DNA of 50,486 bases, filler included, from Jimgerdemannia flammicorona (taxonomy: Eukaryota): assembly GCA_003990765.1 (NCBI GenBank). It is 2 parts of 2 records of this genome, joined end to end, with 100 filler letters (N's around TTAATTAATTAA, not from the genome) between each part and the next. Parts side by side here need not be neighbours in the genome. Positions count along the whole stretch, not along the records: positions 1 to 25,196 come from RBNJ01000868.1; 1 more part is not named here. The stretch is one strand, 5' to 3'. The notes beneath the pieces were generated by a model that worked only from the letters and a program-made list of their open reading frames with translations, searched no databases and was not told where the DNA came from. This document shows, one piece after another, positions 1-40,961 of the stretch. Position numbers and translations under genes: made by a program. Every line of letters starts with the position of its first letter. Positions within the stretch are counted from its first letter, which is position 1.

Positions 1-19
1 AAAAAAAAAAAAAAAAAAA

Positions 20-1421
20 GATGATCTTCTGACAGCTCCATCAACTCTGGGCTCATATGATACTGCAGAAAGCATTAACTCTGAGAGCAATAGTCAAGAG
101 ATAGCCTTTTTTACCAATCTTGCAGGCTCTTATGATGGAGAATTATTGGTATATTCACTGCAAGCAATAAGGCATTTGGCTATTGATACTGGACCACTGC
201 ACAATATACAAGGTAATAGAATATTAGAATTTTTTATTATTATTTTTTTTAAAAAAAAAAAAAATTATATTAATACTAAATATGCATGCATTTCATTTTA
301 AATACTTTAGTACATTGTTCAACACTTTCTGAAGATTTATTTCAGTTTTATTCATCTCTAGAGTCTAGCTCAGATGTACTCTGCTTGGTCAAAGTTACAG
401 TCATAGGTGAACCTGCAGTAGACCAGAGAGGAGTTGCATGAGAAGCCTTTCAAATTATATTGGACCATTATATTGGACCACAGTCACCTTTGATAGAGGG
501 CAATGAGAAATTTCTCCTACATACAGAAAGTTATTTGAATGTTGACAAGCATGACTATTGGACCTTAGGATGGATTATTGTGGCCTTATTTCTCAACTAT
601 AGACCTGCACCTGATTGCCTATATTCTGCTTGTCTTCTTTATGCTCACCATGATTCAATTGGTCATGAAGATGTATTGTCATTTAGTGAGCAATATGGCT
701 TCCTCCTTTGAGCACTAGACCTTACTGAAACAACAAAGGAGATATAGTCTGAATCTTTAGGGTCAGTTAGATTTTATATTCTTCTTTATATTTTTTTTAA
801 TTATAAATTATTTAATTTAAAAAATTCTTTTCATCTAGATTGACATCTGCCTTTGAAGAGCTTGATATCAGTCAGAATGTAGAGAATCTAAAGTATGAAG
901 ACAAGAACGAAGTTCTCTCATTGATCATAAAAACTCTTCTAATCTGGAAATGACAACCTGCTCTTGATCAGCTTGTTTCAGGATTCAATGTTGGAAACTT
1001 CATCAATAAGTTCATTTGTCAACCATAAAGATTTCAACCAATTGTACAACTTTTTTACTCTTCAGTTCTCTACAGTGAGGAAGATATTACCAATACAATT
1101 GATTGGCCATCACACTCAGCTCCTGGAACAAGGATCAGTATTTGTGTCCAGCTTTTCAAGGAGGTTCCCCACAGATGGTCTACCAATGATCCTCAACTTC
1201 TTAGTCAGTTGGTGCAGTTCTGGAGTGGTGCACGAAACATTCCAGTTCAAAAATGATTGCAGCTTAACATTCACTGTTTTGGGGTAACCAGCTCATGTTG
1301 GCCAGTAGCTCATACCTGTGGACCAATACTGGAAATCAGAGATAACTATGAAATAGGAGAGCAGCTTGCGGACAGCTTAGTTGCTGCATTTAATGAGAGA
1401 AGTGTCATGACTCTTCTATAG
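20..1421 (+). pseudogene. HECT-domain E3 ubiquitin ligase-like pseudogene, intron-containing, 5' part outside window
   Basis: Hand translation gives VKVTVIGEPAVDQRGVA*EAF (about 388-450; HECT 'GE.A.D.GG..RE.F' motif, TGA at the Arg) and LVQFWSGARNIP...WPVAHTCGPILEI (catalytic Cys codon 1317-1319), then TAG at 1419-1421. AT-rich GT-AG introns at about 213-310 and 763-838. Several in-frame TGA stops. Confidence 0.85.
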
Positions 1422-1559
1422 TGTTTCATATAAACAACCTTTCATTTCTATATCTCTTATTCTGTATCTCTACCTTACATTTCATTATATTTCAGTTATA
1501 TTACTGTGATCTTTGCTTCTTTGCTCTATATCTATCTTGCTGTTGTACCTCTGCATTTA

Positions 1560-2340
1560 ATTATATTACTATCTAGTATTTCTTTGTAGCATTATTATAA
1601 CTCATGTTCTTCTGCTCTATGATTATTTATATATCTTAACTTTTTATATCTCTGCCTCTGTGATTCTTTAACCCTGCCTCTGAAATTCCTTATATCTCTA
1701 ATCATTTGCCTCTTTGCCCTGTGACTCTTTGCATATCTGCACATTTTTTCTTACATCTCTTCTATGTGATCATCTGCCTCTTTGCCTCTGCAATTTCTTG
1801 CATCTCAACTCTTACTTCTCTGATCCTGCAATTTTCTACTATGCTCTATGGTTCTTTACATATCTGTCCCACAATTCTTTGCCTCTCTGCCCCAACCTGT
1901 ATTCATAGACAGAATGAAACCTTGGACAAACATTACAAGGCCCTACCACAGCCTGCAAGCCATAGTAATTACTACTGTGTACTCTGTTCACTATTCAAGA
2001 AATAGGTGCTAGATTGGATCGGATTGCTACTGTGTTGAACTGGGTCAGTCTAGTAATTCTTTTCATTTCTGTTCCTTTATTCTTTGCCTCTATACCCTGC
2101 GATTTCTTGCATCTTCGGCCTGCAATTCTTTGCTTCTCTGCTTCTGCAACCCTTTGCCTCTCTGCTTCTATGATTCTTTGCATCTCTGCCATGCAGTTCT
2201 TTGCATCTCTACCCTGCAATTCTTTGTATCTCTACCCTATGATTTATTGAACTTCCACCCTATATTCACACTTTATAAACTCACACTCACTTGTGTCACT
2301 GTATTCTGCATTTCTTTGTGCATCTGTGTCCTTTTGCAGC
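1560..2340. repeat. Pyrimidine-rich low-complexity repeat region
   Basis: Recurrent degenerate tctttgcatctctgc / tctgcctctg motifs. The minus strand reads as AEMQRI-like repeats but is interrupted by stops. Confidence 0.5.
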
Positions 2341-2474
2341 TCCTAAACTATTATTTGATCTTGAACTAGCAATTATAATAAATTCATACAGAATATGCTG
2401 TTGAAATGATTGGTGAATAGTGTGGTGAATGATTTTACACCATATGGTTAAATGCTCATGTGATTTCGACTTTC

Positions 2475-3240
2475 AGACAAAATACATTCAAACTCTCACC
2501 CACATTGCTCATTGCCAAGTCCAACTTATGGTTAGTAATATAAATGTTTTTGCCACTATTGGATCCTTAGACAAAATGCACCAGCACTGCTCATTGCCAA
2601 GTCTGACTTATGGTTAGTGATATAAATGTTTTGCTACTCTTAGATTCTCGTGTCCAAACTCTCAAAATGTGTTCAAACTCTCACCCATACTGCACTGCCA
2701 GATCCTCAGACAAAACATGTTCAAACTCTCACCCACACTGCTCACTGTCAGATCCTTAGACAAAATGTGTTCAAACTCTCACCTGTACTGCTCATTGCCA
2801 AGTCTGACTTATGGTTAGTTTTTATAATCAGACAAAACACATTCAAACTCTTACCCACACTGCTCATTGCCAAGCCTGACTTACAGTTAGTTTTTATAAT
2901 CAGACAAAATACATTCAAACTCTCACCTGCACTGCTCATTACCAAGCCTGACTTATGGTTAGTTTTTATAATCAGATAAAACATGTTCAAACTCTTACCC
3001 ACACTGCTCATTGCCAAGCCTGACTTATGGTTAGTTTTTATAATCAGACAAAACACATTCAAACTCTCACCCACACTGCTCATTGCCAAGCCTAACTTAC
3101 AGTTAGTTTTTATAATCAGACAAAACATATTCAAACTCTCACCCACACTGCTCCGAATATCCAACTCAGATAAAATGTATATCCAAACTCTCAAGCCATA
3201 CTGCTCATTGCTAAGTCTGACTTTTTTTGCCATTATCAGA
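2475..3240. repeat. 72-bp tandem minisatellite with degenerate outer copies
   Basis: Unit cagacaaaacacattcaaactctcacccacactgctcattgccaagcctgacttatggttagtttttataat recurs at about 2829, 2901, 2973, 3045 and 3117. Confidence 0.92.
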
Positions 3241-3297
3241 TCCTTCCACTGACTATGAATCTCCCTCACCCTCTCAAAACCCAGCTCAAGCATCAAA

Positions 3298-5431
3298 ATG
3301 ACCTGTACAAAACAAACTGCAAAGAAGTTGACCTTTGATAATGCAGCCCGATGAAGCCTGTCTCAAAGTGCAATCATGGCACCAACCAGGCATCCAGCTC
3401 GAGTGACCAATATAACCAGACCATCTATTCAGGTATATTATATGGAGGGGGTAAAAAAAAAAAAAAAAATGAATGAAATATATATATTTTCAGGTGAATG
3501 TCTCTATGACCAAAGCCTTTATCATTTTTTATTCTTTTGGATATTTTGGGATGTCTCTGTGATGGAAGCCTTAATATCTTTTCTGGTGAATGTCTCTGTG
3601 ACTGAAGTCTCTTTTATTTTTTATTCTTTAGATATTTTGGATGAATATCTCTGTGACTGAAGCCTTAATATGTATTCTCTTTTTTATTTTTATTCTTTTG
3701 GATATTTTGGGTAAATGTCTCTGGACTGAAGCCTTAATATCTTCTTTCCTGGTGAACATCTCTGTGACTGAAGCCTTTTTTATTTTTATTCTTTGGATAT
3801 TTTGGGTGAATATCTCTGTGACTGAAGCCTTAATATCCTCTTTTTTATTTTTTATTCTTTTGGATATTTTGGGTGAATGTCTCTATGACTGAAGCCTTAA
3901 TATCTTCTTTCCTGGTGAACGTCTCTGTGACCAAAGCCTTTTTTATTTTTATTCTTTAGATATTTTGAGTGAATATCTCTGTGACTGAAGTCTTAATATC
4001 TTCTTTTTTATTCTTTTTTCTTTTGGATATTTTGGATGAATGTCTCTGTGACAGAAGCCTTAATATCTTCTTTCCTGGTGAACATCTCTGTGACTGAAGC
4101 CTTTTTTATTTTTATTCTATAGATATTTTGGGTGAATGTCTCTGTGACTGAAGCCTTAATATCCTCTTTTTTATTTTTTATTCTTTTGGATATTTTGAGT
4201 GATTGTCTCTATGACACAAGCCTTAATATCTTCTTTCCCAGTGAATGTCTCTATGACCAAAGCCTTTTTTATTTTTTATCTTTGGATATTTTGGGTTAAT
4301 ATCTCTGTGACTAAAGCCTTAATATTCTCTTTTTTATTTTTTATTCTATGGATATTCTCTGTGACTGAAGTCTTAATATTCTCTTTTTTACTTTTTATTC
4401 TTTGGATATTTTGGGTGAATATCTCTGTGACTGAAGCCTTAATATTCTCTTTTTTATTTTTTATTCTTTGGATATTTCGAGTGAATGTCTCATGTCTCTG
4501 CAACTGATGCCTCAAAAATTTTCTAATTTCTATTATCGAACTGACTTATTATTAGAATTCTTGAACCATTAATATTGGTTGCATCAAGGGTACCATGTGC
4601 TGCCTGTGTGGGACCAGATGCTGTATTTTTGAAGGATACAGTATCAGCAACTGTTCCAATGCCATCTGCATTGAGAATGATCACAGTCATCTATGTGCAC
4701 TACTATTTATTGCTGAAGGAGCCTGGCAATGTCCATCTCATGACAGTAAAGCTAATATAACTGTTTGGTACAATGAGAACTGTCTCATTGATATCCAGAC
4801 ACTTGAATTGGCATCATTTTCGGAGCAGGAGATCCTCTTTTCAGCAACTGGGTTGATATTTTCTTCATATAGTGTGTGTACTTTTATATTTATATTTATT
4901 TGCTGATATTGGTCAGATTTTAGCTAATAAGATATTTTTTATCTATACAGAAAAACCAGATCCTTTTTACAAAGCACTCTTTTTCAACTGGAAATATGCT
5001 GAAGGCTGCTGTAATAAGCACTGATCAGATGTAAGGTTTTTTTTTTTTTTTTTTTTTAATCTATTTTTTAATATTATATTCTAATTTAATGTCATACTTT
5101 TTTCATCAGATGGTGACCTGAAGCTAGCAAATGGCTGTTAATCCTGACACATACTAATGATGAGGGTGATTTATGGTTTGAGATCACTAAAGATGGACAG
5201 CCATGGGCGACCCCATTGAATGAGGTATGTTTACAGAGTGTCTTTAGGTTTTTTATTAAATAAAATACTCATTTATTTACAGTTTTTTGCCAGCATCTTC
5301 ACCAATAGCAGAACATATAATATCAACATAGTTCTTTTCATCTGTGGCTCCCTAATACACTCTACCAAGTCCAATACTAAAAAGAAGTTGCAAGAGGAGA
5401 CTGTCCGGGTAATGAATGCATTGAAGAGGTA

Positions 5432-5462
<31 letters not shown>

Positions 5463-5830
5463 CTAAGTATCTATTTAAATATAATATATTTTATATAAAG
5501 CTAATGATTAAATTTATATTTATATAGACCAAATATTGGGAAAGTTCTTCTTTTTACACAACAAGATCTTCTACCAAATCAAATTGCTGGAGATGTTCTG
5601 AAGATTATTGAGCAGTATGAGATGTGTGGTGTTCCATTTGTAGAAGCTGTATGCCAAAGAGAGAATCTGTCAAGTCCTGTCTGGGTGTTGGAAAATGGTG
5701 AGGGAATATATATTCATGGAAAATTATTACCTTGTTCTAAACATCCACATGCATACAAAAGTAGTTAGTGCTGTATGATGGTTAAATGTAGTGAGAATGA
5801 TAGATATGTTGTTGAGATTGTAGAATGTAA
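3298..5830 (+). pseudogene. Multi-exon pseudogene: histone-H3-tail-like N-terminus plus PHD-like zinc finger plus uncharacterised C-terminal region
   Basis: Exon 1 (3298-3432) reads MTCTKQTAKKLTFDNAAR*SL...PSIQ. Donor GT at 3433; branch CTGAC at 4541; acceptor AG at 4554-4555. Exon 2 continues in phase: NS*TINIGCIKGTMCCLCGTRCC...CSNAIC...HSHLC...WQCPSH. Further GT-AG-bounded exons at about 4951-5030, 5110-5224, 5283-5428 and 5529-5830 (approximate). Confidence 0.6.
3490..4500. repeat. Composite intronic minisatellite
   Basis: About 20 copies of gtgaat(a/g)tctctgtgactgaagcctt alternating with T-rich ttcttttggatattttgg or tctttcctg linkers. Confidence 0.9.
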
Positions 5831-5957: not shown

Positions 5958-7449
5958 TGTAAGCATACAACCTCCAAGCCACCAGAATCGCATGGCATCC
6001 TCAGAACTAATTCGGAAACCACATGTGAGACTACAAAACAAGAGATTATCTGGTTACATGAAATACGCCAGCAAGCACAAGAACCCACTGCCAAGATATA
6101 AGAATACTAGAAGAATTACTACAACCATAAGACTGACTCTGAACTACTATAGCTAGTTTAGTGTACCGTACTATTACAAAAGAAACTGAAAGTACCAAAC
6201 TCAAATCAAGACAAGAAGAACCCTATCTCACCCATCAAAAGGTTCATGAACTGCACTTATCAACTCAAGACCCAGATATACCATGACTATACAAGACCTC
6301 ATTACTTAGCAGAAGCAAAACGCATTTGAACAACTCTGTTCGCTTTATCTGTATCACCTCCGTTGGAGAGTGACGGACACTTCATCTGAACTCAAGAAAG
6401 CCAACAATGTCGAAACCAATCTCAAGCCATCTATGTGACAGATATTACTACTAGAAATTGCCTCAGATTATAGAAAATATCATTTCCGAGAGGTTCGAAC
6501 CCCCAGCCACGACATTGGGAGCCCTCACCCTAGACAAGAATGGCCAGTCCTCGCAAATGCACCAGCAGACCAAAAAAAAAGAGAACCAAGATCTGTTATC
6601 CTTGTACAACTACCACCACCAAGGACAGTCTTAATCTTACAAGAGATAGAAGTGACGACATCTTGAAAACTGATGATGTCAGAAGTCAGAAAACTGCTCA
6701 GACTTTGCCAGTGATAATGTCATCAATAGTGATGTCATCAAAGACTAACCAGACAGTGCCTAAACCTATAAATAGCTTAGCAGTCATAGTATAGTTAGAT
6801 TAGCATTGTATGACGTGACTGTGAACTGACTCAGCAGTCAGACGATCTCTTAACATGTCAGATCACACTTGTACTACGTAACTGCATTCCGACTCAGCAA
6901 GGCACTTAGTGCTATATCCATATCTAGCATAGTCCAGATAGCCCCTCACTAGTATAAATACCCCCTCCCCCAGACCTCAGAATCTTAGACTTAAACAGAC
7001 TCGAACACACAAGAACATTCCTGAATACTTCCCCACAATACTCCTTCACACAAATACTCCTAGTATAGCAATATCATGAATAGCAAATAAACCTATTCCA
7101 TAATCCACAAACCACTCTTAAGTAAATCTGCCCCCTGTTAGGTCCCATTCCTAACCCCATCACGAAATTTCCTAATTGGGTATTGTCTGCAGCAATATGC
7201 CAATTCAACTAAGCTGGTCTTAGTTTCTTGAACTTCCTGAAATACGGAAAACCCTGAATATCCAGAACTAGTCCAGAAAAGGACTTTGGTTGAGACATCA
7301 ACCCGATCTTGAAATCAATAAGCATAGAGGACGTACTCCATATGAAATTGATCTTGACCATAAGAAAACGGTCTTTCAGAATATCCAGAATATCCAGAAA
7401 ACCTTTCCAGAACTACGTAACAGTTACCCTAAAAAGTAACCCTCTTACA
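5958..7449 (+). repeat. 5' LTR (1492 bp)
   Basis: Aligns along its length with 10840-12964 once the MITE is removed. TG...CA ends; TATAAATA at about 6953; AATAAA at about 7086. Confidence 0.95.
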
Positions 7450-7452
7450 ACT

Positions 7453-7464
7453 TGGTAGCAGTGG
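7453..7464 (+). promoter_or_regulatory. Primer-binding site, probably initiator tRNA-Met
   Basis: TGGTAGCAGTGG starts 3 nt after the LTR end. A TGGTAGC start matches the 3' end of eukaryotic tRNAiMet. Confidence 0.75.
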
Positions 7465-7645
7465 TTTACAATCCAATTCCACTTCAAGACACTTCCTCAC
7501 CCCGCTACAAACCCTTCTGCGAATTCCTACAAGTTGGTATAAAGCCCAACCTCTGAACTGGAATTTACCTGAACTATCTGACAATCTGGAGAGAATTTAA
7601 TCTGACATACAAGGACAATTTGACCTCCACACCTGCAACAAGTAG

Positions 7646-9480
7646 GACAAACTTCATTCCAAGAAAGAAGTACTCCGGTTAAACCAGCAAATAGGTGAAA
7701 TCCTATTCACTGAACTCCTTGCACTACACCCAGCAAGTCAAGACGAAGAAGGTCTTATTGAAGTCTTCTTTACTCTTCTCAACAAGAGTTTTGTTAGCTC
7801 CACAAATCCGAGCGACCTAGGACAATCAGCAGCAGTCTTTCTAGCCTTAGTTCCTCACGAAGCCCAAGCCGCTGTAGCCAAGTGGCTCAACTCTACTGAT
7901 TTTCACTGCACCAGGACCAAGACCGCCTTATACTACCAATTCCAGAACAGCAAGACCTGCCATATCCTTAAAGAAGAAGCAAGAGAAACCCTTCATCAAC
8001 TATCTGACCCCGAACCTAAAGCAGGCCCTGCTACAGCCCTACCTGAATCTGAAACCAATACTGAACCTGAACTTGACTTTGAATTAAGTCCATCTGAAAT
8101 CATATATACAACTGATTCTGTCTACTTTGATACTGAGCAAACCCAATTACATGGGGACCAAACCAAAGAAGAGGAGGAGTATCTCACTGAATTCGATCCC
8201 GGATATACCACCGAAGGAGAAGTACCTCCATCAGGACAGAATATACCTACACAGCAACAAACAGTTATCTATAAAGCCCTCACTCCAGACCCACAACTAC
8301 TACTCCAGCAACTTACACAGACCCAAAGAACCCCATCACACTCTGCACCAGTACCTCAAGTAGTACCAGTAACACCACTACCAGCAGTCCAAATGCCTCC
8401 AGTAAACAACATGGCAAATCAACAGATTCTAGAGCTCACAGCCCAAGTAGCTATAATGGCAGCAACCATTACTGCCTTAGCTGAACAGATCCGACCTACC
8501 AAAAATCTGAGCCTACCTACCTTCAATGGCACTGCACAAGAAGTCCAAAGCTTCATTAGTGTAGTTGACACCAACTTTGAAGCCAATCAATGGACTAATG
8601 AGCGAGTTGCTGACTGCATCCTGATAAACAATCAAGACCACACTTGGAACAACTCTTTGCTAAAACTACAGCCTATGTCCGCTGAGTTGTTACATTCTTC
8701 CAAGGACCTGCCAAAGAATGGTGGCAAACCCTTCCTGAAAAACCCCTCATATGGGATACCCGACCTGCAGTAGTTGCCCAGAATGCAGCAAACAATGCCC
8801 CAGGATATTGAGCCCATCCTGCAGCCCCTGGACTCAAACAACTCATGATTGCTCAATACCGCAGCGAAACCATGATTGCTGAATCTCGAGTAAAACTCCG
8901 CAACCTCAAATTTGATATATATGGCAAAGAAGAATTCGAAACCTTCTGTACAAAACTCGAGTCACTCCTGAATACTGTTGGCCTAGGATATATTGCCAAC
9001 GATGAAGCACAAAATGGTACAAGAGTAGACCATTTATTTGATGCCCTGCCTGAATGGCTTACTAGAAAAATCTGAGAACAAGGCTGCCCAGTTGGTTGTG
9101 ATCACCAACAATGGTGCCTGGCAAGAATCAAGACTATGGTCAAGCGAATCCTAACAGCTGGACCAATTCTGCCCTAAAGGCAATTCAACAACAAGGAAAA
9201 GACTTGGACCAGGAAAGAAGAACCCAAGCATGAAGCATCCCGAGCTCCCTCTACATCCACCTCTTGGACACCCAGAAATCCTGAACCTACCCAGCCCAGT
9301 ACCTTCAAGAAACTTACTGAAGGCGAAAGGAATGAACTTCGAAGAAGTGGAGCATGCTTCTATTGCCGAAAGACAGGACACATGGCCAGTACCTGCCCTA
9401 ACCGAAAACCCCAAACAGCAACCTGAGCAACTGTCACCACTCTGCACCATCTCAACAACCTGACCACCAGAACACTAGAC
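7646..9480 (+). pseudogene. gag: Gag (capsid-like region and CCHC zinc knuckle), decayed
   Basis: LPTFNGTAQEVQSFI capsid-like motif in ORF 8393-8773; CFYCRKTGHMASTC (CX2CX4HX4C) at 9355-9396; one frameshift and TGA stops. Confidence 0.85.
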
Positions 9481-9885
9481 TTTGTCAAGTTAAGACAAAC
9501 TACTAAGGCCCCAACCAAAGGAAGTCAAAAAGCAGCTGGATATGACCTGTATACAGCTGAAGAAGCTACAGTTTCCAACCAAGAAGTCAAACAAGTCTAC
9601 ACAGGAATCAGTATCCAAATCCCTGAAGGACATATTGGAAGAATATGCTGTTGCAGCAGCCTAGCACTGAAAGGACTCTCAGTAGAAGGAGGAGTCATTG
9701 ATGAAGATTACACAGACGAAATTATTGTCCTCATTCGAAACCACAGTTGGACACCCTTCAAAATCCCTATTGACTTCTGCATTGCCCAGATCCTATTCGA
9801 AAAAATCGAGTCAACCCTAACAGTCAAGGAAGTCCCTGAACTACTACCCACCATCTGAGGATCCAAAGGATTTGGCTCATCAAAC
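9481..9885 (+). pseudogene. dut: Trimeric dUTPase domain, in frame with Gag
   Basis: FVKL...GSQKAAGYDLY...TGISIQIP...GRICCCSSLA...GGVIDEDYTDEI...IAQILF...I*GSKGFGSS shows dUTPase motifs I-V. Conserved Arg codons have decayed to TGY/TGA. Confidence 0.95.
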
Positions 9886-10145
9886 AAGGCCCCGGCCCAA
9901 CCTACCGCGAGCAAAGAAGAACAATTCTACAAGAAGATAGAAGATGGATATGTACCAAGTGGCCGATGCCCTCATGGTATTGGAATGTACTCTTCCCGAA
10001 TGATTGATGATTGCTTCTCTTGTGTCAATGAACTGGCTCAAAGAAGAACCAACAGAAGAAAGGCTCCTACAATGGAAATCACCACCATTGGATCAGACAA
10101 ACTGTACACCCTTAAGGCTTTTGTCATGGAGCACCTGTCAAGATT

Positions 10146-10460
10146 ATGATAGACAGTGGTGCCTCAGGCAACTTCATCAATGAAGAAACAGCCAACAGAC
10201 TCAAGGTCTTCCCCTCTCCAGTACAGCAAACTCAAGTGGTTGCCACAGCTGATGGAACCTCACATGTTATTAGCAAAGAAGTCCGCAATCTACCCTTCCG
10301 AATTGACAACTACCGAGTACATGTTACCCTCCAAATCGTACTACTCCCTGACAATGAAATCATCCTTGGGACCCCATGGTTAAAACAAGAGAACCCCATG
10401 ATTGATTGGGTAAACCATTCTCTGACCATCAAGAAAGGACGCCACAACTTCAAACTATAA
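10146..10460 (+). pseudogene. Retropepsin aspartic protease of the Gypsy element
   Basis: MIDSGASGNFI active-site motif and IILGTPWL...NPMIDW motif; one frameshift just upstream. Confidence 0.93.
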
Positions 10461-10659
10461 GGCAAAAAGGACTCACTCAACTCTAGTAACCCTGGACCAA
10501 AGATCACCCACATCAACAAGCTACAACTCAAGAAATTGGCCAAGAAATGCCCTCTCTTCGCCATCTCCATCCGACCATCCAAAGAAGAACCCGAGAACTC
10601 TGAAGAAGACTTTTCCAAAGTTGACAGCCATGTCAGACCACTACTCCAGAAGGTCCAAG

Positions 10660-10750
10660 ACACATTTCCAAACCGAACCACAGAACCACCTGCACCTGTC
10701 ATTATTAATGACCAAGAAGAATACAAGGTTGAACAAATCCTCAACAAATA
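10660..10750 (+). pseudogene. Integrase C-terminal tail and chromodomain start remnant
   Basis: FPNRTTEPPAPVIINDQEEYKVEQILN resembles the chromoviral 'PPPP...EEYEVEKIL' segment; it is truncated after ILN. Confidence 0.75.
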
Positions 10751-10825
10751 TAGCCACAAGAACCATCCAAATGGTATAACAACACCAGAACAAATTAGAA
10801 GGCCCTGACGAGGACGTCGAAAGCT

Positions 10826-10838
10826 AAGAAGGGGAGAG
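10826..10838 (+). promoter_or_regulatory. Polypurine tract
   Basis: AAGAAGGGGAGAG immediately before the 3' LTR TG. Confidence 0.85.
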
Positions 10839-10839
10839 T

Positions 10840-12964
10840 TGTAAGTGCACAACCTCCAAGCCACCAGAATCGCATGGCATCCTCAGAACTAATTCGGAAA
10901 CCACATGCGAGACTACAAAACAAGAGATCATCTGGTTACACGAAATACACCAGCAAGCATGAGAACCCACTGCCAAGATACAAGAATACTAGAAGAAGTA
11001 CTATAACCATAAGACTGACTCTGAACTACTATAGCTAGTTTAGTGTACCATACTATTACAAAAGAAACCGAAAGTACCAAACTCAAATCAAGACAAGAAG
11101 AACCCTATCTCATCCATCAAAAGGTTCACAAACTGCACTTATCAACTCAAGACCCAGTTATACCATGACTATACAAGACCTCATTACTTAGCAGAAGCAA
11201 AATGCATTTGAACAACTCTGTTCACTTTATCTGTGTCACCTCCATTAGAGAGTGATGGACACTTCATCTGAACTCAAGAAAGCCAACAATGTTGAAACCA
11301 ATCTCAAGCCATCCATGTGACAGATATTACTACTAGAAATTGTCTTGGATTACAGAAAATATCATTTCTGAGAGGTTCAAACCCCCAGCCGCGACATTGG
11401 GAGCCCTTGCCCTAGACGAGAATGGCCAGTCCTCGCAAATATGCCAGCAGACCAAAAAAAAAGAGAACCAAGACCTGTTATCCTTGTACAACTACCACCA
11501 CCAAGGACAGTCTTAATCTTACAAGAGATAGAAGTAACGACATCTTGAAAACTGATGATGTCAGAAGTCAGAAAACAGCTCAGACTTTGCCAGTGATGAT
11601 GTCATCAATAGTGATGTCATCAAAGACTAACCAGACAGTGCCTAAATCTATAAATAGCTTAGCAGTCATAGTATAGTTAGATTAGCATTGTATGACGTAA
11701 CTGTGAACTGACTCAGCAGTCAGATGATCTCTTAATATTAGTGCTCTGAACGAGTCAATCCGGATGGGATTTGGATGGATTCGAATTGGATTCGAATTGG
11801 ATTCGAATCAACCATTGTTTTGATTTCCAAATTAGACAATTAAATGTTTACATCAATAACTTGATGAATAATCATCCAAATTTGATGATCTTGGTGTCAT
11901 TTGAAAGCCCTTAATAAGGCCTTTCTAATGATACCAAGAACATTAAAATCAGATTACGTGTTGCCGAGATATTAAGGAAAACGTTCCATTTGACGAAATT
12001 TCCAAAATCGGCAAATCAAAGAATTTCCAAAATCGGCGATTCAGACATTTTCCTTCATAACTCAGCAACGCATAATCCGATTTCAATGTTCTTAGTATCA
12101 TTAGATAGGCTTTATTAAGGGCTTTCAAATGACACCAAGATCATCAAATTTGGATGATTATTCATCAAATTATTGATGTAAACATTTAATTGTCTAATTT
12201 GGAAATCAAAACAATGGTTGATTCGAATCCGATTCGAATCCGATTCGAATCCGATTCGAATCCATCCGGATGGGATTCGAATCCCATCCGAGTTGATCTG
12301 GATGGGATTCAATCCAAATCAATCCGAATCCAATCCAGATTAAATTGACTCGTTAGGAGCACTACTTAATATGTCAGATCACACTTGTACTACATGACTG
12401 CATTCTGACTCAGCAAGGCACTTAGTGCTACATCCATATCTAGCATAGTCCAGATAGCCCCTCACTAGTATAAATACCCCCTCCCCCAGACCTCAGAATC
12501 TCAGACTTAAACAGACTCGAACACACAAGAACATTTCTGAATACTTCCCCACAATACCCCTTCACACAAATACTCCTAGTATAGTAATATCATGAATAGC
12601 AAATAAACCTATTCCATAACCCACAAACCACTCTTAAGTAAATCTGCCCCCTGTTAGGTCCCATTCCTAACCCCGTCACGAAATTTCCTAATTGGGTATT
12701 GTCTGCAGCGATATGCCAATTCAACTAAGCTGGTCTTAGTTTCTTGAACTTCCTGAAATATGGAAAACCCTGAACATCCAGAACTAGTCTGGAAAAGGAC
12801 TTTGGTTGAGACATCAACCCGATCTTGAAATCAATAAGCATAGAGGACGTACTCCATATGAAATTGATCTTGACCATAAGAAATGGTCTTCCAGAACATC
12901 CAGAATATCCAGAAAACCTTTCCAGAACTACGTAATGGTTACCCTAAAAAGTAACCCTCTTACA
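10840..12964 (+). repeat. 3' LTR, interrupted by a MITE
   Basis: Copy of 5958-7449; the differences are mostly C>T and G>A transitions. Confidence 0.95.
11739..12364. mobile_element. hAT-type fold-back MITE (626 bp)
   Basis: TIRs TAGTGCTCTGAACGAGTCAAT / ATTGACTCGTTAGGAGCACTA; perfect 8-bp TSD CTTAATAT (11731-11738 and 12365-12372); absent from the 5' LTR; internal inverted arms of more than 200 bp. Confidence 0.93.
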
Positions 12965-12989
12965 ATATCTTTATCCTTAGAGAAAGAGT

Positions 12990-13460: not shown

Positions 13461-15076
13461 TTATATATAAAGTAATTGCAATACAACCTCTATTGCCCTA
13501 ACATATATATCTATTCTCCAAAGATCAGATACTGCCAATGGATCTATCTCTGTTTGTAGCTGCATTTTTATTTCATCAGAAAGGCCAATGTCCTGAGAAG
13601 GCTCCTTTTCTTTAGATTCACCACCTATGCCAACTGGACCATCCCAATCAATTCCAAAATCCTCATGTATTCCTCCAAATATATCAAAAATATACTGGTC
13701 ATCTTCTCTTGCATCAAATCGATTCTGTTGCTCAGCATTAGATATGCCCAGAATGAACAACTGCCGTGGGGTTCTATTATTCTCCATTGTAATAGGATGT
13801 CGATTCCAACCCTCTATAAATAATTGGAGGACAGCTCAAATTTGGGGAATATATATAAAGTAAAGACACCACATATGAACTGGATTGTCAATATCTAAGA
13901 ATCCCTGATGCTCAAGTTCATAAAAAATCTTAAAATAGCAATAGATTTAAAGTTAGAAAATATATTAAATAATATTATTTAAATATATATATATAATCTT
14001 ACCTCATAAAATATTCTCAATACACAACTCCATACATCTCACCAAAGTTGTTCAATTCATTGATTATGTGTAGATTTTCCAGCAATAAAACTGCCATGGC
14101 CAATTCCTCTTATTCGCAACATAAACTTACAGACAGCATAATTTTCACCTCCCTTATCACCTTGAACTCGACTAGGACAACTCCAAGATTGGATTCCTTG
14201 TAAAAATGCTTCCATCATTGTTTCTTTCTGATTATTATTGTTTAACATAAGAAATGTTATTGCCTGAGTCATGCTATCAATACTGCCATATACAACCATC
14301 TTCCATCTATCCAATCCATGATATCCATCAATATGCCAGAGAGAGTTTGGTTGCTCAACCCAATAGACTTTTTGCTGAATACTCTCAGCCCATCGTATAG
14401 AGACAACAATAGGATCAATCACTTGTAAGGCTCTTCAAATTCGATGTCGACGAATATGTATTCCTTGGCTTCACAATACTCCAGTTAGTGTTCACTCTCC
14501 ACTATAAGCATCTGTTGTCTGCTTAAGATGCCTTATCATATTCTCCAGATCAGTATCAGAAATATCTGTCCATTGTCTACAGATTCCATAATCACGTAAT
14601 CATCTCTTGATAGTTGATTCTGAGATACCAAAGAGTCGAGCAATATCAGAATTTTTTAGACACTCTTCTACATTGGCAATAAGAATCTCCTTGCTGATAA
14701 GATAGTCTGGACGTCCACCTTGTCCAGTCCAAATAACTTGTGGTTGAATAGGTAATAATGCAACTTCATCTGCATCAACATGAGTATGGATTCTAAGAAG
14801 CAGTAAATGGGCTAAGTCAAGATTGCTCTGGATCCATAGATCAGGCAATAGAGTTGCAAGGCAATTGAGATTATTTGCAAGCTGATCCAATTGAAGAAGG
14901 TGGAGGTCAAATTCAGAATGATTGCCATTATTTCGCAAGTTCAATACATTTTGAGCATCTTGTATAATTTGGGAAGCTGTATGAAAGAAGTTCTGTATTT
15001 GATCCAGTTTGTGTGGTATGCACAGCTTACTTGGCTTATATGGTTTATATGGCTTATGTAGTTTGTGTTTGCTCAC
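13461..15076 (-). pseudogene. rve/IS3-like DDE integrase-core transposase pseudogene (IS3EU-like), one intron
   Basis: HTH IARLFGISESTIKR; core PNSLWHIDGYH...YGSID...PSRVQGDKGGEN...GKSTHNQ*IEQLW (D, D, E); intron at about 13929-14002; C-terminal GWNRHPITMENNRTPRQLF. Arg>TGA stops. Confidence 0.88.
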
Positions 15077-15179
15077 AGCTTACTCAGCTTGCACAGCTTG
15101 CACAGTTTGCATAGTTTGCACACCTTGTATGGCTTGTATGACTTGTATTGCTTGTGGATGATACAGGTTATATAGCTTA

Positions 15180-15614: not shown

Positions 15615-17160
15615 CTAATGGTATGCCATATTCCAGTAGCACCTGTTATAACTCCCCAACCTCTATTTTCACCTACACTAATCTCCAATCCTCCTCCCTC
15701 TAGGGCCACCAGACCTGCTCAATCTTCCTTAAGCCTAGCCAGTCTAGCAGAAGGCCATCACACCCTCTTCCTCCTCTGTCTTCCAGCCACCTTGCCAGCC
15801 TCACTCCCATAGGCCATAGTAGTCTCTTTTATCCTCATCCACTGGACACCAACTGGGGTACCCTCCTGTATTCAACCCTCCACCCTCTGCTGAATATCCT
15901 CAGCCCACTTGTCTTGTAGTATCCTATCATCTAACAAAGAGGAATTAAGGCATCAATGTCTAGGCCCATCTACTTCCCCCAAAATGACCCTGCCCCAGCA
16001 ACCCCTAATGATCCAACCACAGATACCACTCAGCCTCCAGCAACTTTCAAACATCCAAACCCCAGCAGCTCACTGTCAGAATCCAGTTAATCCTCATCTC
16101 CAAGCTACCTGTCCAGTACATGTATATCCTCCTATTACCCCAAAACTCCCTACCAGTATCCACCAGAGTACTTAGCCTCTCCACTCCTACCCTCAGCCCC
16201 CTGCTCTCCATCAGTTCTATCTACCAGCACATCTCTGACCATATTAAAGTCTCTGCTAAGCATATCTACTTCAGCCTCTGTGAGGGCCCCACTCTCCTGG
16301 AGACTCTTCACCCAATCTACATGCTCACTCTATACAGCAGAGCAGTAGCAGGAACCCACTGTAACTGACTCCCAACCTGTTCATACCCACTCTCTCCAAA
16401 CCAGCCTATCACCCCAGCTCCTCATATCTGATTTCTCCCCTCTGCCTCTCCAGACCAGAATCCCAACCTTGTCCTTCCAAACTACCTCACCTCACCATTC
16501 CTTCATCCATTCCAGACTATTTAAGTCATTTGCACATCTGACATCCTGCAAAAGAAAGAGATCAGCCTTCAATCCCTTCAGCTAAGTAATATTGTTCTGA
16601 TACTAAAAGAACTCTATAACCTATTCACATTCAAGAAAAAAATGTTGGTTATACTGTTCATATGGAATATTGTGAGATAGCAAGTCCATCCTCTACTGCT
16701 CCATATTCATTACCTCCTGTGCCAAGTCCAGATTGTTTTCAGCAGACACCTCCTCCTCTTCAGCCCTTCTAGCCTCCAATCCAACTAGTAGCTCAGTCAT
16801 TTCCCCATCCTCCTTTTTCTCAAAATCTTCACAATACTTCAGGCAGGCCTCCTGCCAGAGTTGTAATTCATGATACTCAGCCCAACATTAGGTGGCCCAC
16901 TCATTAGCAGCAACTGCCAGCTCGGCCTCCCTCTCCTTATCAATCTCATACTCTTCCTTCTCTAGAAAAACTACAAGTATTTCTGCCTTCAGTGCCTTCA
17001 CCACTCCATTGCTATGTAGGATCTATACCCAATGCTCATTACTCATCACTCTTAGGTCCACTTCCCCCAACTCTTCAGCTGCAAAGTTATTCATCATCTG
17101 GCACACTATAGTAGGTTTCCCACCTCCTTCCCCCCTAGAGTTGCTGGCCTTAAGCTAATA
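15615..17160 (-). mobile_element. Decayed L1/Tx1-like LINE fragment (ORF1 end plus APE endonuclease)
   Basis: Reverse complement is homologous to about 22540-23990: MNSITNIFFLNVN start at 16661, and GPRH*CLNSSLLDD. Confidence 0.85.
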
Positions 17161-20889: not shown

Positions 20890-23800
20890 AGTACCATTCA
20901 GGTTACACAACCTTTGGAAGGCACTCATAACATCGTTTTTGGAGAAAAGAGACTAACAATATGGCGACTGACAGGCAACCTGAGGTGTGCACTGGGCAGG
21001 GTGGCCCAAGTGCTTTCGACTGGCAGCAGGTGGGGAGGGGTCTGGGCCTGGGGGGGGTTAAGAGGGGGCTGCTGGTGGGTGGATGTGGAAGGGGTGAAGG
21101 TGGAGGTGGAGACTCAGGATCTGGGAGGGCGAGCTTTGTGGAGATGGTGAAGGAGAGACAGCAGGCATCAGGGCTGGAGGGCTGGTTGAGGAAGGGCAAG
21201 GAGACCGAGAAGGTGACAGTGCAGGGGGGAGCAGCCCTTGGAAGGGGGGGTAGTGGAGCTGGGGGAGTAGCAGCTGGGGGGAGTGTGACTGCTGATGGTG
21301 ATGGGACTGTCAATCTTGAAAAAAATCCAGATGTAACGGCTGATGGCGAGGCCGAGTGGTTGAGGCTTAGAAGACAAGGGGATCTGGTGGATGGTGTAAC
21401 GGGTCTGGCAGTGGCCCCATTACTCAAAAAATCGATCTTGGCATTTGCAGTTATACTGTGCTTCCAGGGCCTAGCAGTGACAGCAAAAATGGTACTGGGG
21501 CTCATCGCTAAGCAGGTGGCAGGAGCTGCATCCGTGAAGTTTTTGAAGAGACTGGAGGGAGTGGAGGTGGGTTTTGAGGAGGCGGCGCCACTGGAGGAGG
21601 TGCTGAAGGTTGGATTGGTAGTTGGAGAGGTGTGTGTTCTGATGGCATGCTGCCTGAAGTGGGATCCCAGGGTGGTCCAACTGCTGGTGAAAGGAGTGCC
21701 GATAGTGACAGTGATGGAGACAAGAAAGAGAGTTGAGGATTTCATGGCAGAATATGGAGAGGTGGTGGATATCAGATTCAGGGTCTGGGAAGGGACCACA
21801 CTCAGGACTGGTGACGTGGATGTGAGGATTCGGCTGGCTGGGAAGGAAGCTACTGGGAAGGCGAGGGACTGGCCTTCAGTGATGGTCTGGAGAGTGATCT
21901 TGTGTAAGGTGACAAGGGTGAAGGGAAGTGAGGAGGAGGAGGAGGATTTATTGGAAGTGCTAGAAGAGTTGGATGGTGCTGTAAAGAGGTGAGCGAAGGC
22001 TTGGGAGGCCTTTGTGGAATCGACACACTTGGAGGTGGCAGATTCGAGTGACTAAGGAGCAGTGGGAAAGAGCTCAGGGGTGTAAGAGACAGAAAGAGCT
22101 GCTGGCCAAGCTGGATACTGGGCCACTGGGGGATGCGAGCAAGATGAAGGGCACAGGGGGAGCTGAAGCGAGCATCTGGGCCGGCGAGGGAGAAGGGAAG
22201 AATAAGAAGGAGGCAGGGGAGGATAAGGCAAAACCTAGTAACGACTCATATGCTGATGGTATGCTGGAGGTTTGGGAGGAGGACTGGGAGGGCTCTCCTA
22301 CCCCCACCCCTCTTATCAGGTATGGCCCGGCTTCCAGAAACAGAGTGTTAGAAGATGTGCCAATGCGAGGGGCCCAGAGGGTGCAATTCGGAGTTCCAGA
22401 GACGGTATATGGGGGACAGATGGTGGCAGCTGGAGAGGAGGAACTGGTGGATGTCCCAGAGGTATGGGATGAGTCTGCAAGTGCTGGAGCTGACACCATA
22501 ATGTTGGATGGAGGGAGGCCGGTGACTCTGGGGAGGAAGGAGGTGGGGAACTTACTTTGGATGTGCTGGATGATGAATAACTTGGCAGCAGTAGAATTGG
22601 GAGAGGTGGACTTGAGAGTGATGAGTGATGAGCATTGGGTAGGGATACTGCAGAGGGATAGAGTGATGAAGGCATTGAAGGTGGAAATTCTTATGGTGTA
22701 CCTGGAGGAGGAAGGATATGAGGTGGATAAGGAGAGGGAGGCAGAGATGGTGGTAGTTGCTGGAGAGTGGGCTGAATACTGCTGGAACAAGTGTCATGGA
22801 CTGCAGCTCTGGCAGGAGGCATGCATAGAATACTGAGAGAAGTTCGAGGAGAAGGCAGATAGAGAGATGAATGAACTGCTGGCTGGATTGGAGGCTCAGA
22901 GGGCAGAAGAGGAGGAGGTGGCTGCAGAACACAATCTGGACATAGCACAGGGGGAGATGAGCATAGAGCAGTAGAGATCGATTGACAACATAACATATTT
23001 CATTATGAACAGTACAACCAATATTTTTTCTCTAAATGTGAATGAGTTATGGGGTGCTGCTCAACGTAGGAACATTTTTACTTGGATGAAGGGATTGGAG
23101 GCCAATCTCTTCCTCTTGCAGGATGTCAGGTGTGAGGAGGATTCTAATAAGATGGAATGGACGAAGGAATGGGGAGGTGTGGCGATTTGGAAGGGCAAGG
23201 TTGGGATTTTGGTTCGGAAAGGCAGAGGGGAGATATAGGATGTGAGGAGCTGGGGGGAGAGACTGGTCTGGGGTGAGTGGATTCATGCAGGCTGAGAGCC
23301 AGTTACAGTTGGCTCCTGTTACTGCCCTGTAGTATGGGGTGAGCAAGTAGATTGGGTGAAAGGTTTACAGGAGAGTGGGATCCTTGCAGATGTGCTTGGG
23401 GGAGATTTCAATATGGTTTGGGACATACTGCTAGATAGAACAGATGGAGGATAAGGTGCTGAGAGCAGGAGTGGAGGACTGGTGGCATGGAAGGAAGTAG
23501 AAAGACTAAGAGCACTGGTAGATGCTGGTAGGGAGTGCTGGGGGAATAGGAGGGTTTATACACATTGGGCAGGGGGTTTGGGGACAAGAATCGACTGGGT
23601 TTTGATGGCCAGCTGCTGGGGCTTAGATGTTTGGAAGTCACTGGAGGTGGAATGGTGTCCATTGTCAGATCACTGGGGGCTTTTGGGACAGGGGTGCTTT
23701 GGGGGAAGTGGGGATGGGCCTGGACATTGGTGCCTCAATTCCTCATTGTTAGATGACAGGAACTGGTGGGATGAGTGGGCTAAGGACATTCAGCTGAGGG

Positions 23801-23995
23801 TGGAGAACTGGTGGTGGGAAGGTGCCTCAGTTGGGGCTTAGTGGATGAGGATGAAGGAGATTGCCAAGATTTACTGGAGTGAGGCTGGCAAGGAGGCAGG
23901 GAAGCAGAGAAGGCAAAGAGTGCATTGGGCTTCTACTAGATTAACTAGGCTCCTGGAGGAGTGGGCGAGGCTGATGATGTTGGAGGATGAAGAAG
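20890..23995 (+). mobile_element. L1/Tx1-like LINE, 5' portion: ORF1 (20961 to about 22990) and ORF2 APE endonuclease (from 23005), cut by an LTR
   Basis: Purine-rich ORF1 with an RRM-like segment (YGEVVDIRF...RTGD). ORF2 has SLNVN, LLQD, LGGDFN, YTHW...TRIDWVL, SDH and GPGHWCLNSSLLD motifs. No RT is reached. Confidence 0.9.
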
Positions 23996-24793
23996 TGTAA
24001 GAGGGTTACTTTTTAGGGTGACCATTACGTAGCTCTGGAAGGGTTTTCTGGAAGTTCTGGATATTCTGGAAGACCGTTTTCTTATGGTCAAGATCAATTT
24101 CATATGGAGTACATCCTCTACGCTTATTGATTTCAAGATTGGGTTGATGTCTCAACCAAAGTCCTTTTCCGGACTAGTTCTGGATGTTCAGGATTTTCCG
24201 TATTTTAGGAAGTTTAAGAAACTAAGACCAGCTTAGTTGAATCGGTGTATCGCTGCAGACAATACCCAATTAGGAAATTTCGTGACGGGGTTAGGAGTAG
24301 GACCTAACAGAGAGCGGATTTACTTAAGAGTGGTTTGTGGGTTATGGAATAGGTTTATTTGCTATTCATGTTATTGCTATACTAGGAGTATTTGTGTGAA
24401 GGGGTATTGTGGGGAAGTATTCAGGAATGTTCTTGTCTGTTTGAGTCTGAGATTCTGAGGTCTGGGGGAGGGGGTATTTATACTAGTGAGGGGCTATCTG
24501 GGCTATGCTAAATATGGATGTAGCACTAAGTGCCTTGCTGAGTCGGAATGCAGTCACGTAGTACAAGTGTGATCTGACATGTTAAGAGATCGTCTGACTG
24601 CTGAGTCAGTTCACAGTCATGTCATACAAGGCTAATCTATCTATACTATGACTGCTAGACTATTTATAGGTTTAGGCACTATCTGGGTAGTCTTCAATGA
24701 CATCACCATCGATTGCATCATCTCTGGTGAAGTAGTCATCTAGGAAGAGTGGTTCACGGATTATTTCTCCTTGTTGGCTGAGGTAGTAATACA
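23996..24793 (-). repeat. Solo LTR, short (about 800 bp) variant of the 5958 family
   Basis: 23996 to about 24710 is the reverse complement of about 6730-7449. A different 85-nt segment follows, ending in TAATACA (TG on the minus strand). Flanks AGAAG and TTGGC do not match. Confidence 0.85.
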
Positions 24794-25196: not shown

Positions 25197-25296
25197 NNNN
25201 NNNNNNNNNNNNNNNNNNNNNNNNNNNNNNNNNNNNNNNNTTAATTAATTAANNNNNNNNNNNNNNNNNNNNNNNNNNNNNNNNNNNNNNNNNNNN
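25197..25296. other. Artificial assembly spacer
   Basis: 44 N + TTAATTAATTAA (stops in all six frames) + 44 N = 100 bases. Confidence 0.97.
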
Positions 25297-36706: not shown

Positions 36707-38103
36707 ATGTTTAGCCGGGTGTTCGACATCGTACCCCTCCGCTTCAGAAAGGACGCAAGACTCGAACCGCAATGGTACCGCTACCTGCGTGGATCTACCG
36801 CTATTCTTGCGCTCTTATCCGTTACGATATATTCCTGCATCCTGATCCGTGATTACCAGAGAGGCGACACATACATGGTCCCGAGTCGTATAGACAGAGA
36901 GCATGACCCAACATATAATGGCTCCGTTTTAATACCAGGTATGTGGTAATGTGGCTCCATTGTTCATCATTCTTCACGACGATACTGAGACTTTCTCTTC
37001 ATTATGACAGGATTGTTCATGGTTCAGTTCAACGGATACGGTCCCATGCAGAATATCACAAGTGTTTGTGCTTTGATGTACCCACCATCCAACGAGAACT
37101 TGACGCTGAACGCTCAATACAAATATTTCTGCAACGGTGTCCTGAAGAGTACACGAGAAGATATTCTCGGAATTCCCACATTCTACTATGAAACACTTCC
37201 CTCGAACCCTCTCTATCTCTCCGATACAAGCTGCGCGTATCCGTCCTCTCAGATGCCGTGCCCAGGCCTGACTATGTTTATGGCAATGTTTTATCCCACA
37301 AACGCAACCGAGGAATCTTTCATAAACTTTGCGATTGTTGATGGGGGATACAAACCCTACACAAGCGATGACAATTCTTTAACTTATTATGCAAGCAACA
37401 ATATGCACACAGCTTGGGCGGTGCGGCCCGGCGAAGGACTTCAACTCCGATTGCAGTACACCTTATACTATCCCATACAGGGCGATCCCTATTACGAATA
37501 CACTCAGCAAACAACAACCATTCCTATTGCCACGAATGGGAGTGCAATCGCGTTCGAGGCCGACACAGTATACATTAACGTTAACGTGGAACGATATGCC
37601 CTATCGCTTGGAACTGTTATTGGTCTTATCGGTGGTCTTTACAGCGTTGTCGCGTCAGTATTTGCAAACATATTTGGAATGAAGGTCATGACACCTTGGT
37701 AATATGCAATTGCTGTCACCGCATGTTAATCTACCATTTTAATGCACTGAAGCTGTATTTTGTGTTGTTTCAACTTCTTTAAATCAGTTCTAATATTCAT
37801 ACCGCATTCTAACCATGTACATACAGGGGTATCCTTCCGAAGTATGTTCCATTCGTTCGCAGACATCTCAAACCTTTGCTGGAAGAACAATGTAACACAC
37901 CGGACGTCTTGGAGAAGACTGAGGTGCCGTTGCCTGGCGACATCGCACATATTGGCCACCACGACCACGGACAAGAGATCGAAAGCTTGAGGAGTGAGAC
38001 AAATTATCTTCGAGCGCGCCTGAGAAACCTGGAGCGGGTGCTAGAACAATTTTATCTTGACAAGGGACTTTTGGAACATCTTGCATCCGACAGGATGGCC
38101 TAA
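36707..38103 (+). CDS. Two-TM membrane protein with a large Cys-containing ectodomain (channel-like family), copy A, 398 aa
   Basis: Exons 36707-36938, 37011-37698 and 37827-38103 splice in frame. TM1 STAILALLSVTIYSCILI; TM2 region LGTVIGLIGGLYSVVASVFANIFG; PWG; tail LRARLRNLERVLEQFYLD. An alternative in-frame ATG lies at 36668. Confidence 0.88.
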
Positions 38104-40685: not shown

Positions 40686-40961
40686 GACCAGATTTATAAA
40701 CTTCAAAGTGCAGAAATCGTTGGAGGCCGCCACCATTGTTGGGCATCCACTTCGTTGATGATTTTGTGCGTTGCCGTTTCAAACATGTCGCCCCAATTGT
40801 ATGAGAAAGCATCAAAAGCTTCATTACCACATATGTATATATATATATACGTAAAAGGAAGCACCATCGCGGGTGGGGATAGCGATGTCTAATGATGCAA
40901 AAAAAAAAAAACACCCATGTCTATTCGCGAGTACATAAGCACTTTCATCGAGCTTCGGTAA

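Follow-up and report, generated by a model that had tools for sequence, protein, structure and literature searches.

Can a cellular protein carry a near copy of the histone H3 tail in one chain with a finger of the type that reads such tails? This question is raised by a locus of the fungus Jimgerdemannia flammicorona (Endogonales, Mucoromycota), which lies in a stretch of 50,486 nucleotides of GenBank assembly GCA_003990765.1, composed of two parts of two records joined end to end with filler, and hereafter called the window. On its plus strand an exon at 3298-3432 encodes an H3-tail-like N-terminus and an exon at 4556-4873 encodes a Cys/His finger. The reading that we consider on balance probable is that the locus holds the decayed remains of one member of a small gene family, so far known from fungi of Endogonales type only, whose product combines an H3-like tail, a linker, a finger and a C-terminal domain, and employs the tail as a pseudo-ligand. 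The parts of this reading differ in strength: judging from the available members, the order tail-linker-finger-domain is very probably that of the family, and the use of the tail as a pseudo-ligand is a tentative proposal. That the H3-tail mimic and the Cys/His finger belong together is supported by a second, independent locus, which encodes the protein here called P0007.

In the window, the ATG at 3298 is the first ATG past an in-frame stop (3256-3258). The translation of 3298-3432 is MTCTKQTAKKLTFDNAAR, a stop (TGA, 3352-3354) and SLSQSAIMAPTRHPARVTNITRPSIQ, and GTATAT follows at 3433; the N-terminus of this exon is MTCTKQTAKKLTF..., and the tail peptide of the H3-tail/finger family is ARTKQTTKKSTF. 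A sequence-only reading of this DNA had taken the ATG at 3298 to open an H3-tail-like peptide that keeps the K4, K9 and S10 positions of the histone. The translation bears out the H3-like peptide, and P0007 carries a matching tail; the K4 and K9 positions are retained in the unrepaired sequence, but S10 is not, residue 11 of the window tail being Leu instead of Ser. R2 is absent from the copy as it stands, which starts M-T-C-T-K, and its TGT codon is one CpG>TpG step from CGT. TKQT occurs once in the six-frame translation of the window, where 0.51 occurrences are expected; the longer pattern M..TKQTA.K.T, which was picked post hoc, has a chance expectation of about 1e-6 per window. When exon 1 was compared with the Protein Data Bank with X at the stop, a single match was obtained at E<=10, and it was histone H3 in the N-terminal register, with an E value of 1.4 that alone is not significant.

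The 102 residues of exon 2 were scored against 1.84 billion representative proteins at E<=0.001, which gave 6 matches, three of them true relatives: P0001 (125 aa, E 7e-25), P0003 (82 aa) and P0006 (292 aa). The other three (P0002, P0004 and P0005), which are bacterial proteins with immunoglobulin, RCC1 and cadherin repeats, were matched in 7-10 short stretches; these matches are compositional and were dropped. A profile of the exon 2 relatives was then run against 5.8 billion proteins, with 8000 candidates scored, and at E<=0.01 it added P0007 (197 aa), bringing the proteins that share the finger to four in all. P0003 and P0007 are hypothetical proteins of J. flammicorona, where at least two paralogues of the finger gene are present. 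P0007 is the only one of the four with an N-terminal extension. Its sequence reads MPRPSTITEHL-MARTKQTTKKSTFGLAGRGSLKTALNPASTKTRPMPP...QGPRTIDIGHVRSTMCCLCGTGGC..., with MARTKQTTKKSTFGLAGRGSL located about 70 residues N-terminal to the common finger in one annotated protein; the stretch MARTKQTTKKSTF likewise stands upstream of the finger. Among 12 candidates, P0007 itself was the only protein with both tail and linker, and no longer fused form was found among 7999 candidates scored, which is weak evidence. DNA of relatives was also sought in two metagenome scans, one with the alignment and one with P0001, which gave 117 and 258 pattern matches, none of them confirmed by tblastn.

A tblastn search of the window with P0007 places tail and finger in colinear order on one strand, 1.1 kb apart. 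The tail (P0007 residues 12-61) matches at 3298-3435, with 36% identity across 50 positions and an E value of 0.028, and the finger (P0007 residues 77-179) matches at 4565-4876, with 57.7% identity and an E value of 1e-36. Of the 51 distinct Protein Data Bank sequences that P0007 matched at E<=10, 49 were histone H3, with alignments that start at residue 1 and E values of 0.8-4.2; the remaining two were the PHD finger of ATXR5, matched by the P0007 finger at E 0.87, and a phospholipase homologue. The changes R8K, G12F and Q19S relative to H3 are common to the window tail and the P0007 tail, and therefore the two tails go back to one ancestral tail and not to two separate H3 fragments. Identity between window and P0007 is 0/11 before the Met, 9/13 in the H3(1-12)-like part (11/13 once two CpG changes are undone) and 6/18 in the part that comes next; with two sequences to compare, this pattern suggests that the H3(1-12)-like stretch itself is constrained. 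The Met of MARTK is favoured as the real start, because the similarity begins there and because this Met is the first ATG after the stop. From the agreement of the two loci, the H3-like N-terminus is read as a feature of the family and not as a chance open reading frame.

The comparison with relatives also bears on the decay of the window copy, which carries three in-frame TGAs (3352-3354, 4562-4564 and 5114-5116). The sequence-only reading had undone CpG decay by three kinds of repair and had named RTKQTAxKST as the motif to look for in other copies. P0007, the sole relative with the extension, has RTKQTTKKST, and it has R and S at exactly the residues where TGT>CGT and TTG>TCG had been proposed. 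The repair of TGA to CGA fared less evenly: Arg is found at the TGA of the exon 2 leader in P0007 and at the TGA of exon 4 in P0006, but P0007 has Gly at the TGA of exon 1. Moreover, only the first stop had been named, although the two-exon frame then proposed contains two TGAs (3352 and 4562). Among 79 aligned codons, 36 differ between the window and P0007; in 15 of these a single C>T or G>A step leads to the window codon, 6 times within a CpG, and the rest comprise 5 reverse transitions, 6 transversions and 10 codons needing two or more changes. The CpG observed/expected ratio is 0.09-0.11 over 1-5000, 0.03-0.49 up to about 27500, and 0.91-1.15 beyond, so that the decay described as pervasive holds for the first 27.5 kb of the window but not for the rest. 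The window copy is evidently, to judge from these changes, a methylation-eroded pseudogene.

The gene seems to extend well past the two exons first recognised. Exon 1 is followed by a putative intron 1 at 3433-4555 (GTATAT...TTATTAG, 1123 nt, the acceptor AG at 4554-4555), which would join it in phase 0 to position 4556. The in-frame connection to a Cys/His exon with a W-x-C-P-x-H end, proposed from the sequence, holds in coordinates and in reading frame, the intron itself being putative. This intron is enlarged by a 163-bp minisatellite at 3517-4356, with related units of 66-67 bp up to 4491, and the other introns of the gene have 58-99 nt. Exon 2 (4556-4873) starts with the end of the linker, NS, the TGA at 4562-4564 and TINIGCIKGT, and reaches the conserved Met at 4595 and the finger at about 4595-4750; after NS and the TGA its translation is TINIGCIKGTMCCLCG...AEGAWQCPSHD, and the stretch immediately following the TGA is TINIGCIKGTMCCLCGTRCCIFEGYSISNCSNAICIENDHSHLCALLFIAEGAWQCPSHD.... 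Four further exons, overlooked by the sequence-only reading together with the pseudogene state of the copy, appear to carry the gene to 5768, while the tail and finger exons of that reading stand. Exons 3 (4951-5030) and 5 (5283-5428) are modelled from canonical GT-AG sites and colinearity with P0006; exon 4 (5110-5224) contains the TGA at 5114-5116, where P0006 has Arg118; exon 6 (5528-5768) encodes the C-terminal part of the last domain (P0006 residues 190-265, E 0.001) and ends at the stop TAG at 5766-5768. From 4595 to 5768 the exons amount to 286 codons with one TGA, canonical GT-AG sites and consistent phases, and the model of exons 2-6 aligns end to end with the 292-residue P0006 at a score of 179, as against 31.9 +/- 4.5 (maximum 48) in 200 shuffles. 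Upstream of the start codon, tandem repeats with units of 50 bp and 72 bp (2.8 and 5.3 copies) occupy 2663-3153 and end about 145 bp 5' of it.

No histone fold follows the tail, as had been stated before: the Pfam Histone family was not matched by P0007 at E<=10, nor by the downstream open reading frames of the window at E<=1. The C-terminal domain of about 190 residues had no Pfam match at E<=10 when P0007, P0006 and P0001 were searched. A caspase-like domain (CHAT/DUF6642) is no more than an unsupported lead for it, the Atlas scores of 0.88 and 0.77 being under the bar and Pfam giving no match; the His...Cys dyad of that family fared no better, the His and Cys in exons 4-5 of the window not being aligned to His or Cys in P0006.

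According to the reading that we favour, the intact protein would have about 330 residues in four parts: an extreme N-terminus copying H3 residues 1-12 (M-A/T-R-T-K-Q-T-A/T-K-K-S-T-F), with scattered H3 identities to about residue 20; a linker rich in Ser, Thr, Pro and Lys; a two-zinc Cys7His finger with PHD-like spacing; and the C-terminal domain without recognised fold. The tail would most likely go back to an H3 gene and its first coding exon, as G13 (in P0007 only), A15, R17 and L20 are kept, beyond the needs of a short reader-binding motif. Removal of the initiator Met would expose a free A/T-R-T-K end, the ligand of PHD-type readers, and the tail might then work as a pseudo-ligand in either of two ways. 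It could fold back on the finger of its own chain, and the resulting self-inhibition would end when chromatin competes or K4 is modified; alternatively, it could occupy other proteins that read or write the H3 N-terminus. The R8K change would make the tail a poor K9 substrate. A bolder version, which we regard as doubtful, is that a captured H3 exon fused to a PHD-like reader would form bait and reader in one chain, a switchable chromatin decoy possibly active in a conflict between repeats and silencing. As a decoy, the free ARTKQT end would compete with real H3 tails for their partners, including whatever ties H3 to the DNA methylation that erodes this region of the window, and R8K would shield it from K9 marking.

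A number of observations weigh against this reading, and they concern both the finger and the tail. PHD fingers have C4HC3 ligands, with H-x2-C in the middle, and a conserved Trp two residues before ligand 7. The family finger has the ligands C-x2-C-x9-C-x4-C-x4-C-x8-C-x10-C-x2-H, with that Trp invariant in 5/5 sequences, but the C4HC3 signature with its central H-x2-C is not matched. Compared with a canonical PHD finger (PF00628; ATXR5 PHD, PDB 5vab), it likewise has eight Cys/His ligands over about 50 residues, and the spacing of ligands 1-5 and 7-8 is inside PHD ranges, whereas ligand 5 is Cys and not His, ligand 8 is His and not Cys, and eight residues instead of two separate ligands 5 and 6. 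Neither PF00628 nor any other Pfam family was found at E<=10 for P0007, P0006 and P0001, and exon 2 of the window had no Pfam match at E<=1 except DUF6860 (E 0.044). A profile of the 5 sequences gave one match among solved structures, a Rieske protein at E 0.076, and no PHD finger. Rieske 2Fe-2S ligands form the boxes C-x-H ... C-x2-H, and a Rieske reading of the finger was rejected, the first box being missing from P0001, P0003, P0006 and the window. In the Atlas, all ten best named feature hits and all ten structure rows were PHD clusters, below the bars of the tool: feature scores were 0.80-0.86 for a bar of 0.9, and the template-modelling (TM) score was 0.50-0.55 on a model with a predicted local distance difference test (pLDDT) of 0.47. 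AlphaFold2 models had a mean pLDDT of 38.7 for P0007 (5-row alignment) and 39.9 for P0006 (4-row alignment), too poor for a fold search. A complex prediction of the P0007 finger (77-150, with two Zn) with the tail (13-62), made without controls, scored 0.00 against a mark of 0.34, which is no answer and speaks neither for nor against binding. The label 'PHD-like' given to the finger from the sequence is therefore upheld by the spacing, the W-x-C-x2-H end, the ATXR5 match and the Atlas leads, but not by Pfam, by the profile or by the low-pLDDT models; these data weakly indicate a finger that is PHD-like in layout, with membership of the PHD family unproven.

As to the tail, it is carried by two sequences only, the window and P0007, and every argument from conservation has n=2. 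The individual H3 matches of P0007 have E values that are not significant, because the matched stretch is short, and the weight of the H3 likeness comes from the agreement of two independent loci. The match of the P0007 tail to the window lacks strength when taken by itself, and it is slightly outscored by a low-complexity match on the opposite strand, 18 kb off (22822-22742, E 0.007). The annotated model of P0007 begins 11 residues before the M-A-R-T-K start; if that annotated start is used, the mimic is internal and has no free N-terminus. Both copies have K for R8 and so have lost the A-R-K-S motif around K9. The window copy is dead and lies in silenced DNA, and is for this reason uninformative on present function. 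Finally, the models of P0003 and P0006 start at the finger and have no tail, and a Met immediately precedes the finger in 4/5 sequences; a tail-less protein may be the main or only product.

These last two facts also favour a neutral exon capture, in which the family acquired, from an H3 gene, a promoter and the first coding exon, and with them a start codon and expression signals, and the H3 residues are a fading relic that plays no part in mimicry. The identity to H3 includes positions that have no known role in reader binding and becomes weaker with distance, the pattern that descent and later drift would leave. Against a relic stands the distribution of identity along the two tails, 9/13 (11/13 repaired) in the H3(1-12)-like part compared with 6/18 in the next part and 0/11 before the Met, with 58% in the finger, a comparison of n=2; weighing both sides, we find neutral capture rather unlikely.

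A second alternative, distinctly unlikely in our view, is that the gene is the cargo of a selfish element, either carried by a mobile element or multiplying as one, and that the tail serves as an anti-silencing decoy soaking up enzymes or readers. The setting agrees with it: the copy is located in the half of the window that is poor in CpG and rich in repeats, among a long terminal repeat (LTR) retrotransposon and an integrase-like gene; minisatellites flank and interrupt the gene, which has decayed in the same way as the repeats; and there are the paralogues in J. flammicorona. However, terminal inverted repeats were not found, 19/19 candidate pairs being A/T runs or short arms at most 88% complementary, and neither a transposase nor an LTR could be linked to the gene. 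No second copy was found in the 50-kb window, the search of 5.8 billion proteins returned four proteins only, and the failure to find longer fused forms points, weakly, in the same direction. The membership of a selfish element that the sequence-only reading had inferred thus finds no backing in the gene itself, the link being one of neighbourhood only, and the role of decoy or self-inhibited reader proposed there is likewise conjectural.

The third alternative, a chance resemblance or an annotation artefact merging unrelated pieces, draws on the weakness of every H3 match over a short stretch and on the status of P0007 as an automatic model without review, which extends beyond the exon 2 boundary, but is very improbable and already close to refuted, as the order of tail and finger recurs at two independent loci of differing sequence, the tails share derived differences from H3, the predicted pattern turned up in the only relative with an N-terminal extension, and the motif would hardly be expected by chance in a window of this size.

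The surroundings of the gene contain several other features. The LTR retrotransposon (5958-11738, plus strand), which is not part of the gene, starts about 190 bp past its end; its LTRs, at 5958-6856 and 10840-11738, are 899 bp long and 94.8% identical, and a dUTPase (E 2.5e-27) and an aspartyl protease lie inside, next to each other. Fragments related to it are found at 12365-12977 and 23984-24733. On the minus strand, at 13461-15079, is a gene with an integrase core (rva_4, E 2.5e-35) and a helix-turn-helix N-terminal part, split over several open reading frames in the CpG-depleted half; it is a DNA-element or integrase-derived gene. Inverted GC-rich repeat copies, 73.7% identical, occupy 15732-17150 and 22516-23951, and long overlapping open reading frames on both strands, with strong GC skew and no Pfam match, occupy 20903-22836. 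The switch in CpG content at about 27500 is sharp (0.03-0.49 to 0.91-1.15) and is the border between eroded, presumably methylated, repeats and ordinary genes.

Upstream, the remnant of a multi-exon gene on the plus strand occupies 1-1421 and is probably a further CpG-decayed pseudogene. Its last open reading frame (1257-1421) has a marginal HECT match (E 0.044, 13.8 bits for a cut-off of 23.9) that falls at the C-terminal end of the HECT model, and a HECT N-lobe motif is visible by eye at 280-711, with a TGA at the expected Arg and no Pfam match. A G2E3-like family with PHD and HECT domains, which would join this remnant to the gene, was considered and rejected, the gene ending at 5768 in colinearity with the 292-residue P0006 and the HECT match being marginal. 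In the other half of the window, 40924-48437 contains three paralogous genes with 77-83% identical DNA (with open reading frames at 41335-42069, minus strand, 44207-44962, plus strand, and 47018-47773, plus strand), all ending ...LFGLIGGLYGG.ASVFIILFG...LSPW; one was tested and had no Pfam match, and a fourth, more distant open reading frame is at 36989-37702. The window also includes a fungal-type beta-galactosidase gene and two runs of 44 N (25197-25240 and 25253-25296).

Returning to the tail-and-finger family, its protein resembles histone H3 in the N-terminal 12-20 residues and differs from it in R8K, G12F and Q19S, in the lack of a histone fold and in all the rest, which is unrelated. 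Viral histone mimics, such as the ARSK of influenza NS1 and the hepatitis delta antigen, are reportedly short histone-tail-like motifs that engage host chromatin factors; they have 4-6 residues, are usually internal or C-terminal, and are convergent, whereas the mimic of the family is long and N-terminal and comes from the genome of a cellular organism, a fungus. The human H3 N-terminal mimics (H3TMs; VRK1, PCLAF/PAF15, BCL11, SALL and others) are marked, according to Chen et al. 2021 (PMC8166343), by iM-Z-R-X-K (Z = A, G, S, C, T, P, V); binding by PHD readers requires that the initiator Met be cleaved off and depends on a groove for R2 and a pocket for K4. The M-A-R-T-K of P0007 fits this rule, as does the inferred ancestor of the window copy. 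The H3TMs and the family would have in common a Met, a small residue and R-x-K at the N-terminus, and in both an H3-like end would become accessible to PHD and related readers once the Met is removed. They differ in that the human mimics share only about four residues with H3, whereas P0007 shares 10/12 of the first mature residues, with similarity as far as residue 20 or so, a sign of descent from an H3 gene. The family mimic, moreover, would stand in one chain with a PHD-like finger. A model for a self-inhibited reader is given by BAZ2B (PMC5663869), in which a histone-mimicking interdomain linker reportedly modulates the PHD and bromodomain readers of the same protein; that mimic is an internal linker of loose similarity, unlike the N-terminal and near-exact H3(1-12) of the family, in which intramolecular binding would have the same role.

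A literature search, covering sources other than subscription journals, found no account of an H3-tail-plus-PHD fusion or of this family, which by this search alone is undescribed. The known short mimics of human regulators and viruses are motifs of four to six residues that arose by convergence, and in the family, instead, a non-histone protein seems to have inherited at least 12 residues of the H3 N-terminus, in covalent linkage with a probable reader of that ligand. The value of the finding rests with the family and not with the window locus, because the window copy is a pseudogene. If the reading is true, the family would be a natural case of histone-tail exon shuffling and a built-in system to study the self-inhibition of readers, and it would offer an entry to the chromatin biology of the Endogonales, barely studied fungi with large, methylated and repeat-rich genomes.

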